IMG/VR virus record: IMGVR_UViG_3300031555_001441 | Span: 64,001-128,000 of that record | DNA from: a virus | Taxonomy: Duplodnaviria > Caudoviricetes | Length of the DNA: 64,000 nucleotides | Direction: 5' to 3' (one strand) | Shown: positions 1 through 5,073 of the stretch, piece after piece | Numbering within the stretch: the first letter of the stretch is position 1 | How the letters are laid out: each line of letters opens with the position of its first letter | Translations under genes and position numbers: made by a program | The notes under the pieces: model-generated | The model's input: only the letters and a program-made list of their open reading frames with translations | Told to the model about the DNA's origin: nothing | Database searches by the model: none

Positions 1-933
1 TTCCGCGTTGGTAAATCTCAACACTGTCCACCCTAAATTGTTTAGACATTGCACTTTCTTTGCATCCAACAACCGATGCGATTTCATATTGTGATCTACA
101 CCATCCACCTCTATTCCGAGAAATATTTCGGGATATGCTAGGTCGAGTGCGTATTTCGAAGGATAGTGATTTGGATTGTTTTTTCGATCTATACCCACAG
201 TCACGGAGTACTCTAATTTCCATTGAGGTCCTAGCTGAGATTTGAGCAGCATCTGCGGCTTGGTGAAGTGTCCGTTCCCACCACGTGCAACAGGCGGCAT
301 ATGTAAAGTACCATTTTGCTCTCGCGTCTGGATCATCTTCGCTACTACATCTGGATTGCTCATCGGATTGTGTTGTTTCATACGTTCTGATGCCTGTGGG
401 CTGGGCCTTCCTATGCTGTAACTGGTTGTCAATGCATAACGACAAGTATTGGAACATGTCTTCTTGTTCAGATTGGAAGAGTTCACTACAAATGAATTTC
501 CACACCAAGCGCACACACGAGTTATCACAAGTTTCGCAGTTTGTTTTCGCATCCGAATCAGATGATTCGCACATTTCGGAGAGCAGGCTGTTCGTGGATC
601 GCTGTTTCGAATCTCCATCTGCTTCCCACAAACTGGACAGATAAACATATGCCAGTGTTTTGAATGTTCCTCCGATAATCGTTCCAAATTTGGATTCTGC
701 GCTCTCCAAACTCCTCCGCACTGCGGTGAGCACGTGATTGAATTCACGCTCTGTGGTGTCCAGAACATCTTTCCACATATTGGACACTTTTTCTGTATCG
801 AACCAGGATGACGATTCGACATTTCGTTGTGCATATAGATCGCACGACACGCCTTGCTGCATAGCACTTTCTGATCGCTGGCATAACGCACCTCGAACAT
901 TTTGCCGCATTGTTTGCAACGACGTTGAATCAT
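1..933 (-). CDS. Zinc-finger plus Vsr/DUF559-like endonuclease in the +1 frame inside the intein; runs off the window
   Basis: AAGGAG RBS then ATG 933; 311 codons with no stop; four CxxCG...CSxxC repeats; C-terminal YALDLAYPEIFLGIEVDGVDH...LGWTVLRFTNAE. Confidence 0.88.
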   Translation of the reverse strand, partial: MIQRRCKQCGKMFEVRYASDQKVLCSKACRAIYMHNEMSNRHPGSIQKKCPICGKMFWTPQSVNSITCSPQCGGVWRAQNPNLERLSEEHSKHWHMFICPVCGKQMEIRNSDPRTACSPKCANHLIRMRKQTAKLVITRVCAWCGNSFVVNSSNLNKKTCSNTCRYALTTSYSIGRPSPQASERMKQHNPMSNPDVVAKMIQTREQNGTLHMPPVARGGNGHFTKPQMLLKSQLGPQWKLEYSVTVGIDRKNNPNHYPSKYALDLAYPEIFLGIEVDGVDHNMKSHRLLDAKKVQCLNNLGWTVLRFTNAE

Positions 934-1186
934 ATAGTTGATCTCCTTGTTGTAAATATTTAGCAGGTATCCACCCGTCATTAGTAAAAAACAAGTGATC
1001 TTGAGTTGTTACTAATCTACGACCTCCTACTGATATAGATATAAGGTTTTCTGGTTTCACTCTGTTCTTGAATACCTGTGTCACCGTCGCTTGACCTGTC
1101 ATGTTATATATGAGGTCTCCCGGTTGAATATCCTTGATTTGTATTTTACCTGCAGGTGTTGATATCCATGTATTTCCAGGAAAACA
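1..1186 (-). mobile_element. Intein inserted right after Walker B (IIDE/C)
   Basis: Block A CFPGNTWISTPAGKIQIKDIQPGD starts at 1186. Block B LVTTQDHLFFTNDGWIPAKYLQQGD follows. RVDSVEIY at the window edge resembles the start of the C-terminal splicing region. Confidence 0.92.
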
Positions 1187-1498
1187 TTCATCGATGATGA
1201 ATACCTTGTAATCACATCCTACTGGATATGCTCTCGCTTGCTGCATTATATCACGAACAGTGTCAACACCACTGTGTGAGGCAGCATCTAGCTCAATAGG
1301 CTCTCCTTTGCCGTTGTTTAAAACACGAGCCATGCATTTTAACAAAGTGGTCTTACCACAACCTGCTGGTCCAATCAACAGGAAATTTCGAAGTTCTAAC
1401 GGCTTAGTTTCACATATGGATTTTAGTATCTTGACCACAGTTCCCTGCTCTGTAACATCATCCCATGTTTTTGGCCTGTATTTATTTGCTAAATTCAT
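1..1498 (-). CDS. dnaX: DnaX (Pol III gamma/tau)-like clamp loader with an intein; runs off the window
   Basis: Manual translation from ATG 1498 (GGAG RBS): MNLANKYRPKTWDDV, Walker A GPAGCGKTT, IELDAASHSGVD, Walker B KVFIIDE. The frame is open to base 1. Absent from the ORF track because no stop lies in the window. Confidence 0.93.
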   Translation of the reverse strand, partial: MNLANKYRPKTWDDVTEQGTVVKILKSICETKPLELRNFLLIGPAGCGKTTLLKCMARVLNNGKGEPIELDAASHSGVDTVRDIMQQARAYPVGCDYKVFIIDECFPGNTWISTPAGKIQIKDIQPGDLIYNMTGQATVTQVFKNRVKPENLISISVGGRRLVTTQDHLFFTNDGWIPAKYLQQGDQLYDSTSLQTMRQNVRGALCQRSESAMQQGVSCDLYAQRNVESSSWFDTEKVSNMWKDVLDTTEREFNHVLTAVRRSLESAESKFGTIIGGTFKTLAYVYLSSLWEADGDSKQRSTNSLLSEMCESSDSDAKTNCETCDNSCVRLVWKFICSELFQSEQEDMFQYLSLCIDNQLQHRKAQPTGIRTYETTQSDEQSRCSSEDDPDARAKWYFTYAACCTWWERTLHQAADAAQISARTSMEIRVLRDCGYRSKKQSKSLSFEIRTRPSISRNISRNRGGWCRSQYEIASVVGCKESAMSKQFRVDSVEIYQRG

Positions 1499-1544: not shown

Positions 1545-2324
1545 TCATCGTCCATACTCCTTGCATTTCTTGTGGTAAGGACAGTAGTTGGGCGAACACC
1601 ATTTGTCGCCTTTTGGAAGACCTTCAGGTGCTAGATTTTTGTCAACCATGTCGAGAACATACTCTAATCGATGCTTGATTTCATCTTGTTGTGCAAGTGA
1701 CACTGATAACGAATAACATTTCAGATCACCATACCATCGGTCTTGATAAAGAAATAAAACATCATTAAGATTAAGAAGTGTTGCGTACAGCATCGCTTGA
1801 TCAATGTGTTCTGCTTTTGCGAATGTTAAATCTTGCCAACTAGCGTATTCACATGTTTTTATCTCTAGAAGTGTGAGCTTATCTTTCCAACGAATGATTC
1901 CATCGCATGCGAATCGTATTGGAGGTCTAGCTATCTCAATTTGAGTTTCTAACTTGTTACTAGACTGTTTCGCTGTATACTCATACGAAAAATTTATTGA
2001 TTTTAGATAAGTACAAACATCTATCCAATCTTCTTTCAGAAATTCTCTTAGATCAGACTGAATTATTTCATGACAAGCTGTTCCGATTCTTGATATGAAA
2101 TCTAAGCCCTTATCAGGTTGTTTCAATTCATCAGGCTGAACACCTCTGAGCCGAAACCACGAACGTCTATCACATCTGAAAGAAGAAGCGGCGAAAGTCC
2201 TGTGAGAAGGCTCCGCCGCTTGTCTTACTATCTTTTGATTCAGTTCGTTTTCGTAAAATTCAAGTAGTTCCGCACTGGCGGTTGAATTGAAAGGTGCAAC
2301 ACTATCTAATTTACGAAACGCCAT
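1545..2324 (-). CDS. Cas4-like PD-(D/E)XK exonuclease
   Basis: CDGII...LLEIKT and QAMLY motifs; one N-terminal Cys plus C-terminal CSPNYCPYHKKC, a typical Fe-S staple. Confidence 0.8.
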   Translation of the reverse strand: MAFRKLDSVAPFNSTASAELLEFYENELNQKIVRQAAEPSHRTFAASSFRCDRRSWFRLRGVQPDELKQPDKGLDFISRIGTACHEIIQSDLREFLKEDWIDVCTYLKSINFSYEYTAKQSSNKLETQIEIARPPIRFACDGIIRWKDKLTLLEIKTCEYASWQDLTFAKAEHIDQAMLYATLLNLNDVLFLYQDRWYGDLKCYSLSVSLAQQDEIKHRLEYVLDMVDKNLAPEGLPKGDKWCSPNYCPYHKKCKEYGR

Positions 2325-2330
2325 AGTAGA

Positions 2331-3446
2331 TTACTCCGCTACACTTGAAAGCATTGACGTGCAATCTTTGTTCCAGAAGAGCAGTCCGATGACTACAGAT
2401 TCCTCAAGCATCGGATATATGCAAACTTTATCACCATCGACGTAGTTAGCTACAATGGATTTAAGAGTATCTACTCGGAATTCACCTGTGTATACATCAG
2501 GAGTAATACCAGTTGCAGCTACCTCGCACTTGAGCGTATCTGTATAAAGTTTAACTTGTCCATCTCCTACGGACACAAATATCGTATCTTCAGTCGAGGT
2601 AGAAAGCAATGTTGCTTGCCCTAAGAACTTATTGATTGCAGCTGCGCTCGTTTCAACATAATTCGATACTGGATGCTTCATCATGTTGAGGAATATTGCA
2701 GAGTTATAACTACCTACGCCTTCATCGGTTTCATACTGAGGCTGGAATTCTGATACATATGAATAGCTGTCCAGCTGAAGAGATATCAGATAGCTGCGGT
2801 CATAGCGTGTTAATTTTGCACCTTCAGGAAGTGCATTGAATAGATTCACTATTGTTTCAGAAAGTAGACAAGTTGTCCCAAGATTGCTTCTTTTAGAATG
2901 TGTAAACAAGCTGTTATCAAAATCGCCGACAAGAACATCACCGGTATCACCTATCCACACTTTAGTATATACAGGATGCGTGAAAGACATTGCTATTGCA
3001 AACATCTGATGATCTTTGACAAATCTCCATGCATCTTTGTCAATATCAACAGAGACTCCGGACTGATCTGATACATCCTTTGGGCTATTAAGTTCAAGCT
3101 CAATGCTATCTATCATCTTCGGAAGTGTAAATTTGGATTTACCTGAGTGTAAAACGAGCCCATTCTCTATGAACTCAAGTGTGACTGTCGCGGTTTCAAA
3201 TGTAGACACAAGCTGTTTCAATAAGAGGCTGTCTACAAATATAGATTCAGATGCATCTGCATCGCCAGCACCCTTTACAATCAGTTGCGTTACAATAGAT
3301 TCAGCTTCTAGATTAACTCTGAGCGATGTCTTTGTAGCAGTCAGCTGAGCTAAACAGCTCTTTCTGTAGTACTTTGACACGTTTGAATTGATGATTCCGA
3401 GATTGAGTGCATCGGAAAGCGGTTTTGTGTTGCATGTAAACTGCAT
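2331..3446 (-). CDS. dnaN: DNA polymerase sliding clamp, DnaN/beta-like
   Basis: 371 aa; MQFTCNTKPLSDAL start and SGKSKFTLP resemble beta clamp; lies between polymerase and clamp loader. Confidence 0.7.
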   Translation of the reverse strand: MQFTCNTKPLSDALNLGIINSNVSKYYRKSCLAQLTATKTSLRVNLEAESIVTQLIVKGAGDADASESIFVDSLLLKQLVSTFETATVTLEFIENGLVLHSGKSKFTLPKMIDSIELELNSPKDVSDQSGVSVDIDKDAWRFVKDHQMFAIAMSFTHPVYTKVWIGDTGDVLVGDFDNSLFTHSKRSNLGTTCLLSETIVNLFNALPEGAKLTRYDRSYLISLQLDSYSYVSEFQPQYETDEGVGSYNSAIFLNMMKHPVSNYVETSAAAINKFLGQATLLSTSTEDTIFVSVGDGQVKLYTDTLKCEVAATGITPDVYTGEFRVDTLKSIVANYVDGDKVCIYPMLEESVVIGLLFWNKDCTSMLSSVAE

Positions 3447-3451
3447 AACAT

Positions 3452-4675
3452 TTAATCTCCTTGTAAAACTTTTCTTTTGATATGAGAAGTAAATTCTTCT
3501 ATATGTATTCTATAACGATTCATGTATTCTACGATGCGATCCTCCAGTTCCTGTGTAGCTTTACCATTCACGCCATGCGCAGCGTCGCCTCTAGGTTTAC
3601 TTCCATCTTCTTCTTTGAATACTGGAAGTGTAAATTCTAGATCGACCAGCTGGTACTGTAGCCACTTTAGATGTTCCGGATCCATTGTATATATGTCTTG
3701 TATGTTTTCAAGTTTCTCAACTTCAGGATATGGGCACGGATATTCAAGTCCATACCAACGAATTGTTGTGGTTACATCACAGCTTATCGGGAACGGTAAG
3801 AAACTACCAGCTTCACTCATAGTAGTACTGAGTATGTTAGCACCTTCTTCTGCATACTGTATTGGAACTTCTGCAATCAATTCATCATGAACAGGAAGCA
3901 AGAATCGACCTCCTATAGATTGCCACGTTGGATTGTTTTCCAGCTGAATCATAGCAAGTTTGGTCATTTCTGCTGCAGACCCTTGAATTATACTGTTTGT
4001 GCATTGTCTAGTTGCTTCAGTTATCTTTGGTCGATTGTTGATAACTTTAATGTGCTCTTCGTATAACTCTTTAGTTCTCCGAGCGATTTGACCGAAGTAC
4101 TTGTATCCTTTGAATTCTCGCATGAGCTCTTCGACAATACGTTGCGGAATTTCATTTTTAGTGTTCTGCAAAGTAGATACATCTAATGGATCAACATCTG
4201 GGTTGACGTATCCCTTCATCGGTAAAAATTCAAATTCAGGCAACTGCATATCTGGTATGTGACGACGACGTCCTAATATAGTTTCAACATATCCATGCGT
4301 CCTTGCCATATTTTGAGAACTCAACATCAACTGACGCAAATTTGGAAACGCATTCAGAACAGCATCATATATCTTTTGTGCTTTAGAAGTTTTATCATCT
4401 TCAGTCATATCATCACGTGTACCAAACAATTGCTCTGCAATTGACGGAACAGATCTTCCGTAACATATGCCCAATACAATAACTTTGGCTTCTCCACGTC
4501 TGGCTTTACCATCAGGTTGATATTCATGTGTTTCTGGATGAAACTCCAAACATTTTTCATATGGAAGATTAAATGCTAAACTTGCTATTGTAGCATATAT
4601 GTCCTTGCCCTCTTTAAAAGCTTTTATCATGTTTGGATCTTGAGATACAAATGCTGTGATCTTTGGTTCTTGCTG
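3452..4675 (-). CDS. polA: Family A DNA polymerase, exon 2
   Basis: QQEPKITAF continues motif A; motif B RGEAKVIVLGICYG; NSIIQGSAAEMTK; motif C LPVHDELIAE. Confidence 0.93.
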   Translation of the reverse strand, partial: QQEPKITAFVSQDPNMIKAFKEGKDIYATIASLAFNLPYEKCLEFHPETHEYQPDGKARRGEAKVIVLGICYGRSVPSIAEQLFGTRDDMTEDDKTSKAQKIYDAVLNAFPNLRQLMLSSQNMARTHGYVETILGRRRHIPDMQLPEFEFLPMKGYVNPDVDPLDVSTLQNTKNEIPQRIVEELMREFKGYKYFGQIARRTKELYEEHIKVINNRPKITEATRQCTNSIIQGSAAEMTKLAMIQLENNPTWQSIGGRFLLPVHDELIAEVPIQYAEEGANILSTTMSEAGSFLPFPISCDVTTTIRWYGLEYPCPYPEVEKLENIQDIYTMDPEHLKWLQYQLVDLEFTLPVFKEEDGSKPRGDAAHGVNGKATQELEDRIVEYMNRYRIHIEEFTSHIKRKVLQGD

Positions 4676-5073
4676 CAACTTAGTTATGTGCTCGCTACGC
4701 ACTTCTCTTATTGCTAAGAGTGTCGGACTATCTCTTGAACAAATGATTCTGTTACCAAATCATCTGCACCTACGAATTTCCATTTAATGGATTTACTATG
4801 AACTAATATCATTCATAAACCAACTCGCTTGAGCTGTACTCTACTCACTTGGTTATCTTAATTCGCCTAAGTTATCACTTATTTATGTATTTCTACAATT
4901 GCGAATATCTAGCTTTCGATAGTCTCTACACACGATATATCCATTTGAATCTACAAATAAATTGATTAGTTGAATATGAATATATCTTGCTCGATATTGT
5001 CCTGTATCTTGAACCAATAAATACAGGAGTTCATCGACTTAACGTAGTTTTATACTACAGCCAACCTCTGTAA
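4676..5073 (-). mobile_element. Group I intron, 398 nt, no long ORF
   Basis: Removal restores SSDYS/QQEPK. The exon ends in U and the intron ends in G. P1 is CUACAGU paired with GCUGUAG, with U.G at the splice site. P7 elements AGAGACUAUC and GAGAUAGUCC are present. Confidence 0.93.

Follow-up and report, generated by a model that had tools for sequence, protein, structure and literature searches.

Introduction

Inteins whose endonuclease is encoded outside the splicing frame were first proposed by Gorbalenya in 1998, as cited in two preprints (10.1101/2025.01.02.630785 and 10.64898/2026.09.14.751524). Here we analyze a 64,000-nucleotide (nt) stretch of viral DNA, hereafter the window, which corresponds to positions 64001-128000 of a 144,269-bp phage-like contig (IMG/VR record IMGVR_UViG_3300031555_001441; 38.5% GC) and carries, in a gene encoding a DnaX-like clamp loader, an intein overlapped by a nuclease gene in a second reading frame. 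The evidence presented below makes it very probable that this is a mobile intein whose homing endonuclease has a gene of its own, overprinted at +1 on the linker that joins the two splicing regions.

Several related systems have been described. Non-canonical inteins of actinobacteriophages encompass antisense LAGLIDADG, antisense VSR-like and frame-3 endonuclease VII-like genes (Gosselin, Arsenault & Gogarten, 10.1101/2025.01.02.630785), and the same authors also propose invasion by free-standing endonucleases and extein switching via nucleotide-binding sites. A cyanobacterial dnaX intein presents a LAGLIDADG endonuclease in the +2 frame, with frame-dependent selection (Phillips, DeSimone & Gogarten, 10.64898/2026.09.14.751524). 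In the 'fractured genes', which include gp41-1, a free-standing Vsr-like endonuclease gene lies between the halves of a split intein, its overlap with the C-half amounting to 6-69 bp (Dassa et al. 2009, PMC2677866). The prototype EDxHD homing endonuclease, I-Bth0305I, is encoded in the loop of a group I intron (Taylor et al. 2011, PMC3239194; PDB 3R3P). The out-of-frame layout of intein endonucleases is therefore already published (1998; 2025-2026 preprints).

The locus analyzed here shares with the actinobacteriophage inteins a contiguous phage intein, an endonuclease open reading frame (ORF) between the splicing blocks and an open host frame, and VSR-like (3R3P/EDxHD-like) nucleases are among the types found there. 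However, the actinobacteriophage VSR-like genes are antisense and the sole same-strand case is the endonuclease VII-like gene in frame 3, whereas the gene reported here is in the +1 frame of the sense strand and combines the VSR-like domain with a zinc-ribbon array. The hosts also differ, being DNA polymerase, minor capsid, terminase and thymidylate synthase genes in actinobacteriophages and the Walker B region of clamp loaders and helicases here. With the cyanobacterial intein, the locus has in common the dnaX host family, an overlapping ORF spanning a low-confidence linker, selection favoring the endonuclease frame, a putative Shine-Dalgarno (SD) sequence and a patchy distribution beside intein-free alleles. 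It departs from it in encoding a Vsr/EDxHD nuclease with zinc ribbons instead of a LAGLIDADG protein, in the frame used (+1 instead of +2), in residing in a phage instead of a bacterial gene and in having a splicing domain closest to gp41-1.

The resemblance to fractured genes extends to the order of elements on one strand (N-intein, Vsr-like nuclease gene, C-intein), the overlap of the nuclease 3' end with the C-intein, the phage replication genes used as hosts and the homology of the splicing domain to gp41-1; moreover, the nested ATG, located at ...GDQLY|D, aligns with the end of the gp41-1 N-half, that is, with the split position. In fractured genes, however, a stop follows the N-intein, a spacer of 27-51 nt ensues and splicing occurs in trans, whereas the locus studied here is contiguous, its host frame reads through and cis-splicing is predicted. 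A split intein or fractured gene was rejected on these grounds, the host frame being continuous across the nuclease gene here and in all other nested loci. Like I-Bth0305I, the nested nuclease is phage-borne, lies within a self-splicing element of a replication/repair gene and combines an N-terminal DNA-binding region with a Vsr-like catalytic domain at the C-terminus. The I-Bth0305I gene, in contrast, is not overprinted on protein-coding sequence, and its product has a NUMOD/helix-turn-helix (HTH) N-terminus instead of zinc ribbons; no NUMOD Pfam match was obtained for the nested nuclease, which does not show an N-terminus of this kind. As read from its sequence, the nested protein bears a different DNA-binding module (zinc ribbons and a helical NPM/RGGNG region) on the same type of nuclease as I-Bth0305I.

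Organization of the intein and its host gene

Neighboring contig DNA was joined to the window in order to read both frames past the window edge, giving the extended locus L001 (L001 = window + 6000). The host gene lies on the minus strand, starts at window position 1498 and forms, once the contig is extended, a single unbroken ORF of 781 codons. The stop-free host frame from 1498 to 1 that had been noted from the window sequence alone (hereafter, the original prediction) is thus present as described and continues off the window. The extension of the contig, proposed at that time as a means of locating the HN/C junction and the nuclease stop, recovered both, and the host frame reaches a proper HN|C splice motif. 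The features identified in the window are as follows (aa, amino acids; AF2, AlphaFold2; pLDDT, predicted local distance difference test):

1187-1498, minus strand: N-extein (aa 1-104), with Walker A GPAGCGKT and ending in ...FIIDE at Walker B (ORF and translation; AAA, Rad17 and DNA_pol3_delta2 Pfam matches; 847 intein-free homologs of ~340-345 aa)
1-1186, minus strand: class-1 intein, aa 105-541, of which aa 105-499 are in the window (Cys1, TxxH in block B, HN|C junction; gp41-1 profile match; Foldseek match 6qaz)
934-1186, minus strand: N-terminal splicing region, blocks A and B, coding in a single frame (AF2 pLDDT 75-86 for intein residues 1-90; aligns to gp41-1 residues 8-94)
943-948, minus strand: SD-like AAGGAG, 9 nt before the nested ATG and made of intein Gly-Asp codons (sequence; GGAGAT-N7-TATG context conserved in clamp-loader loci, with minor SD variants)
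1-933, minus strand: putative nested homing-endonuclease gene P0001, 330 aa, +1 frame, with codons 1-311 in the window and 19 codons plus the stop beyond it (ORF, homologs, purifying selection in relatives)
442-918, minus strand: four zinc-ribbon units CxxCG...CSxxC, nuclease aa 6-164 (6-29, 50-72, 99-121, 141-164) (translation; weak zinc-ribbon/treble-clef Pfam matches; AF2 beta-hairpin plus helix units)
1-270, minus strand: Vsr/DUF559 (EDxHD-type) nuclease domain, aa 222-330, continuing off the window, with D264, E275, D277, H281, D290 and GWxVLRF conserved (Pfam, invariant columns, PDB profile, VIA)
1-60, minus strand: doubly constrained zone, with nuclease motif LGWTVLRFTNAE and intein strand FRVDSVEIYQRG on the same bases (both retained in clamp-loader and helicase loci that differ widely in GC content)

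The intein spans 437 residues (aa 105-541 of the host protein), with junctions IIDE|CFPGN...LLVHN|CHAF. Its C-terminal junction, ...YDLEISGHPSYFANELLVHN|CHAFSS, was seen only after reading beyond the window edge, the final 42 intein codons (...VTMYDLEISGHPSYFANELLVHN, followed by the +1 Cys) being located 1-126 nt past the first base of the window. The sequence determinants of splicing are conserved: Cys1 (IIDE|CFPGNTW) is invariant in 8/8 relatives, and both T61 and H64 of block B (TTQDH) and the HN|C terminus (LLVHN|CHAF) are invariant in relatives. Excision of the intein would yield a 344-aa protein reading ...IIDECHAFS..., of the length observed in intein-free homologs (340-345 aa), and the DE-CH junction created in this way agrees with empty sites such as IIDECHAFS.

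For the 437-aa intein, the AF2 model was confident only at residues 1-90 (pLDDT 75-86) and 411-437 (70-83), the linker of ~320 residues between these splicing regions presenting values of 25-60. The best structural match to the confident regions was the gp41-1 intein (6qaz; Foldseek E-value 4.9e-6, 32% identity, root-mean-square deviation [rmsd] 1.7 A), followed by further inteins and bacterial intein-like (BIL) splicing domains. A profile of the intein searched against PDB likewise matched the gp41-1 intein (9e-12), and the Spirulina DnaX mini-intein gave only a weak match to the splicing domain. By its motifs and profile matches, the element is a contiguous class-1 intein of the Hint fold inserted at Walker B (IIDE|CH), for which splicing is predicted. 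The possibility that it contains an in-frame endonuclease domain was considered and rejected, the nuclease ORF lying in the +1 frame.

The clamp-loader product contains both Walker A (GPAGCGKT) and Walker B (FIIDE) motifs. Pfam searches matched AAA and Rad17 above the cut-off and DNA_pol3_delta2 weakly on the N-terminal part, and precomputed matches to PF13177 and PF22608 exist for the clamp-loader product of the window and for relatives. The extein most resembles the clamp loaders of Firmicutes phages, at 37-40% identity. The Walker motifs, the DNA_pol3_delta2/DnaX lid domains and synteny identify the host gene, at the sequence level, as encoding a DnaX-like AAA+ clamp-loader subunit.

The nested nuclease gene

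The nested ORF is contained entirely within the intein and comprises 330 codons from its SD-associated ATG and 355 codons from stop to stop, its stop codon being located 60 nt beyond the window edge, just ahead of intein block F. The original prediction of a +1 frame open from 933 to 1 (311 codons), with its own AAGGAG-ATG after block B, was correct in coordinates and description. In all nine clamp-loader loci the nested ATG is found at the codon junction that follows the intein GDxxY motif and is preceded by GGAG-like bases, and SD-like motifs precede 26/62 nested starts, compared with 12% of control ATGs. We infer from these features that the nuclease is translated separately, from its own SD-ATG.

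The N-terminal region of the nested protein encompasses the four zinc-ribbon units, the number of which differs among nuclease relatives. This array is presumably the DNA-recognition module, and it is separated from the nuclease domain by a helical region in which the motifs NPM and RGGNG are conserved. For the nested protein, Pfam returned a match to DUF559 (E-value 1e-6), and a profile built from 14 nuclease homologs matched the PDB entries 3HRL (8e-14) and I-Bth0305I (3R3P; 0.005). The AF2 model of the nuclease has a mean pLDDT of 77.5, exceeding 90 across most of the nuclease domain. VIA alignment of residues 218-330 matched 3hrl (Z 12.2, rmsd 1.2, 86 aa), 3r3p (Z 11.3, rmsd 2.4 A, 90 residues) and the Vsr-DNA complex 1cw0 (Z 9.9), while a Foldseek search with the whole 330-aa model returned nothing at E <= 0.001, 3r3p, 3hrl and 1vsr being top-ranked with probabilities of 0.95-1.0 and weak E-values.

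Residues D264, E275, G278, H281 and D290 and the GW.V.RF motif are invariant across 14 family members, D277 and K293 are nearly so, and all of them are present in P0001, which retains all 17 family-invariant columns. The catalytic residues are placed by alignment to 3HRL/3R3P, with no residue-by-residue mapping to Vsr numbering. Translation, Pfam, the PDB profile and VIA hence bear out the four CxxCG...CSxxC zinc fingers and the Vsr/DUF559-type nuclease originally read in this frame, and indicate that the +1 ORF encodes an intact Vsr/DUF559 (EDxHD-type) nuclease with predicted activity. The accompanying description of the intein-frame translation as motif-free filler, with RVDSVEIY as its first motif, has to be amended: RVDSVEIY is a conserved intein strand that overlaps the nuclease motif LGWTVLRFTNAE, the 3' end of the nuclease gene running into the conserved strand FRVDSVEIY.

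Stop avoidance and selection in the overlapping frames

Beneath the 107 long ORFs of this genome, stops account for 10.3% and 6.6% of codons in the alternative frames, and the longest other open runs in these frames span 102 and 133 codons, compared with 346 and 355 at this locus. A chance ORF was rejected on the basis of this difference. To estimate the number of host-frame stops expected from the nuclease sequence, synonymous codons were permuted within the nested gene in 2000 trials, preserving both the protein and its codon usage. This shuffling yielded an expectation of 20.4 host-frame stops (minimum 10 in 2000), compared with 0 observed, whereas the third frame presented 31 stops for an expectation of 25.8. 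Among the nuclease codons that precede codons starting with AA, AG or GA, none of 90 ends in T, in contrast with 97/264 elsewhere, which indicates that host-frame stops are selectively avoided through third-base choice in nuclease codons. The purging of stops from the host frame posited in the original prediction is thus evident in the codons themselves, and the same pattern was obtained for all other nested loci. Together with the intact splicing motifs, this stop purge argues for translation of the precursor across the linker, followed by splicing.

Selection on the two frames was assessed by classifying substitutions in the overlap, for four close pairs of helicase-borne loci, according to whether they are silent in each frame. 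Substitutions silent in the nuclease frame alone prevailed over those silent in the host frame alone, with ratios of 29:1, 26:0, 6:1 and 19:2. Since substitutions silent in the nuclease frame dominate, selection appears to preserve the nuclease protein, with the host frame mainly under a ban on stops. Substitution counts in helicase pairs were used in place of a formal ratio of nonsynonymous to synonymous rates at this locus because synonymous sites would be saturated at the 46-63% identity of its nearest nuclease relatives. Identity was higher for the nuclease than for the linker in 36/36 pairs drawn from the nine clamp-loader loci (mean 55% vs 39%). The per-frame selection anticipated across homologs was accordingly established as purifying selection on the nuclease frame in the helicase-borne relatives, and at this locus it is reflected only indirectly, in the latter difference in identity.

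Recurrence of the nested layout

The +1 nested layout was observed in 22/22 of the first loci. Searches of phage records with the nuclease using tblastn returned matches only beneath coding sequences annotated as 'helicase', in Corynebacterium phage phi673, Vibrio phages CP-T1/Rostov M3, 1.088.O/K391/1.194.O and 104E43.1/159E43-1b, and Pseudomonas phage MR14. In these loci the intein is found at DE|C...HN|CHH and the nuclease homolog as a +1 ORF. Metagenome contigs yielded eight further clamp-loader loci that share both the element and its synteny. An alignment-based scan of IMG/VR detected 240 loci, 80 of which (61 distinct) were fetched for inspection; in 80/80 the host ORF, of 650-2200 codons, contains the nuclease gene nested at +1. 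The hosts include clamp loaders, SF2/SNF2 helicases and a terminase-like protein, mostly interrupted at or beside Walker B. In species-representative prokaryote genomes (GTDB), 24/26 full-family matches are nested at +1, an arrangement that most generic DUF559 genes lack. When 1.84 billion representatives were searched with a profile, 957 proteins were identified at E <= 1e-30. No match was obtained in a DNA-level search with the whole gene among 50,697 phage records, and a single-protein scan of IMG/VR, unlike the alignment-based one, returned no close relative. The +1 product is thus conserved across relatives, with the same layout in >120 independent loci.

The two full-family matches located outside a longer +1-shifted ORF (L113 and L119) belong to an Oscillospiraceae metagenome-assembled genome and to Polaromonas glacialis, and they may be free-standing nuclease relatives and candidates for the ancestral state. 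Other insertion junctions were noted in IMG/VR (among L050, L082, L091, L073, L097 and L063), with DEASR|C...HN|CKE in a terminase-like protein, and DEIHK|C...SN|CKD and DE|C...SN|CH in SNF2-like helicases reaching 2200 aa. The presence of the nested nuclease at these differing junctions suggests that the element uses several insertion sites near Walker B.

The clamp-loader gene lies in a conserved replication module (window 1545-4702, minus strand; L001 3358-5151, minus strand) encoding, in order, PolA, a clamp-like protein (371 aa), a PD-(D/E)xK-like protein (259 aa) whose C-terminus carries a Cys cluster, the clamp loader itself, a 199-aa product and a RecA-like protein; this gene order is common to relatives with and without the intein. 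The clamp loaders of three relatives (P0021, P0025 and P0033; 1121-1134 aa) are ~340 aa longer and show additional Pfam LAGLIDADG/Hom_end matches, which suggests a second, canonical intein within the same clamp-loader gene. Gene calls at loci of this type are inconsistent (L004, L005 and L007), reporting either the nested nuclease together with a truncated C-terminal host piece or the host alone, and the clamp-loader product of the window is seemingly recorded only as a 443-aa C-terminal piece.

Mobility and intein-free alleles

Evidence of mobility was clearest among helicase-borne elements. In Vibrio lentus phages 1.088.O, K391 and 1.194.O (helicase genes at 1567-4269; L008 vs L012/L013), the element is 4-5 times less diverged than the exteins, with 5-6% nucleotide differences in intein and nuclease between 1.088.O and K391, compared with 22-24% in the flanking exteins. 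Similarly, two contigs from the Joint Genome Institute (JGI) differ at 0/1023 element bases and at 26/900 extein bases. Such low divergence of the element relative to the exteins points to recent horizontal transfer of helicase-borne elements, of which the Vibrio phages offer a clear instance among cultured phages.

For the clamp loader, 847 intein-free homologs were found. The closest of these, P0065 (344 aa), is 82% identical to the spliced extein, compared with 56-66% for intein-bearing relatives; its contig presents the same gene order, and the empty site agrees with the junction at 45/60 bases. As the alleles nearest to this extein lack the intein, either transfer or repeated loss of the intein is needed. 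The empty site of an intein-free relative (L183) reads ...ATTATTGATGAA|TGTCACGCG... and constitutes a candidate nuclease target.

Proposed mechanism and alternative explanations

In the mechanism that we propose, the whole precursor would be translated, including ~320 poorly structured linker residues, and splicing would yield the 344-aa clamp loader, while ribosomes starting independently at AAGGAG-N9-ATG on the shared mRNA would produce the free nuclease. The nuclease would then cut intein-less alleles near GAYGAR|TGYCAY in co-infecting relatives, and repair would copy intein and nuclease in as one unit. Family membership and distribution suggest this cleavage of intein-less alleles and copying by repair. 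The overlap would bind both genes to one piece of DNA and shield the nuclease gene from frameshift decay, since any frameshift would also kill the essential host gene.

Some observations weigh against the interpretation of the locus as a mobile intein with an overprinted homing endonuclease. The low AF2 confidence of the linker is based on just eight sequences, a clear SD-like motif is seen at only 26 of the 62 nested starts, and the silent/replacement test is limited to helicase lineages, the nearest nuclease relatives of this element being 46-63% identical. In addition, intein identity within the clamp-loader clade (41-52%) is below that of the extein (56-66%), so that recent transfer is unsupported for the clamp-loader clade itself. 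This is what long vertical residence predicts, and it could be accommodated if the nuclease were real and expressed but no longer homing, either co-opted for phage-phage exclusion or attack on host DNA, or carried along under vertical inheritance. Neither the DNA search of phage records nor the single-protein scan of IMG/VR found a near-identical copy of this element in divergent exteins, as would also fit a loss of homing. Against this stand the intein-free alleles that are nearer to this extein than any intein-bearing one, the clear recent transfer of the helicase sister elements and the intactness of all family-invariant nuclease residues, and we regard loss of homing as improbable. It is more improbable still that in this phage the +1 ORF is a relic in decay, still awaiting its first stop, with the host frame alone functional. 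No close relatives were found with which to gauge selection on this very copy, but its 355-codon open run far exceeds the genome's next-longest (133), the 17 invariant columns and the SD-ATG are intact, and nine clamp-loader lineages have all kept the ORF free of stops and show greater identity in the nuclease frame.

Expression of the nuclease could alternatively involve programmed +1 ribosomal frameshifting, generating a fusion of N-extein, N-intein and nuclease. The two frames do overlap for 75 nt upstream of the ATG, and a clear SD is not present in every relative; yet the ATG occupies the same place after GDxxY in all nine clamp-loader loci, with GGAG-like bases ahead of it, and no slippery motif was noticed, although no systematic search for one was made. 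We give this explanation marginally less credence than that of a relic. Least credible is an assembly or sequencing artefact in which an insertion or deletion (indel) throws a normal in-frame endonuclease domain out of frame, a scenario already contemplated in the original prediction. It would need two compensating indels and a chance open host frame of 330 codons, and the codon-level stop purge cannot result from an indel. The recurrence of the +1 layout in >120 independent assemblies, including those of the cultured phages CP-T1, phi673 and MR14, excludes an assembly indel for practical purposes.

Discussion

The analysis supports the presence, in the clamp-loader gene of this phage, of an intein and a Vsr/EDxHD nuclease gene encoded in two frames of the same DNA. 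A literature search with most subscription journals outside its scope identified no description of a sense-strand +1 Vsr/EDxHD gene with zinc ribbons, of the near-universal nesting of this nuclease or of its link to gp41-1. The invasion of a mini-intein by a free-standing gene, as put forward in the original prediction, is plausible and fits the homology to gp41-1 with the same break point. Beyond this, we tentatively propose, as a scenario that we hold somewhat less likely to be right than wrong, that the zinc-ribbon/EDxHD lineage is obligately overprinted. It would stem from one ancient capture in the +1 frame of a gp41-1-type intein, followed by co-diversification and hops among P-loop NTPases near Walker B (clamp loaders, SF2/SNF2 helicases and the terminase-like host), and would represent a contiguous counterpart, either sister or progenitor, to the split inteins of the 'fractured genes'. 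Hops between clamp loaders and helicases would be explained by the Walker B sequence that these hosts share, an idea that Gosselin et al. put forward for other inteins.

The homology to gp41-1 and the shared break point connect contiguous inteins, in a concrete and testable way, with the fast split inteins employed in protein engineering, and the variable-length zinc-ribbon array joined to a small Vsr-type nuclease represents an uncharacterized natural modular nuclease, site-specific by prediction. Because gene callers either truncate the host gene or recognize just one of the two products, these nucleases, or their full hosts, are systematically missing from protein databases. An endonuclease in a second frame appears to be the normal state of an entire nuclease lineage (957 cluster representatives at E <= 1e-30, with nearly every sampled locus nested), and not an oddity of a few inteins. 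Should the proposed obligate overprinting be true, one nonsense mutation in the linker and an internal start would convert the contiguous into the fractured form, and overprinting would constitute an evolutionarily stable strategy instead of a passing accident.

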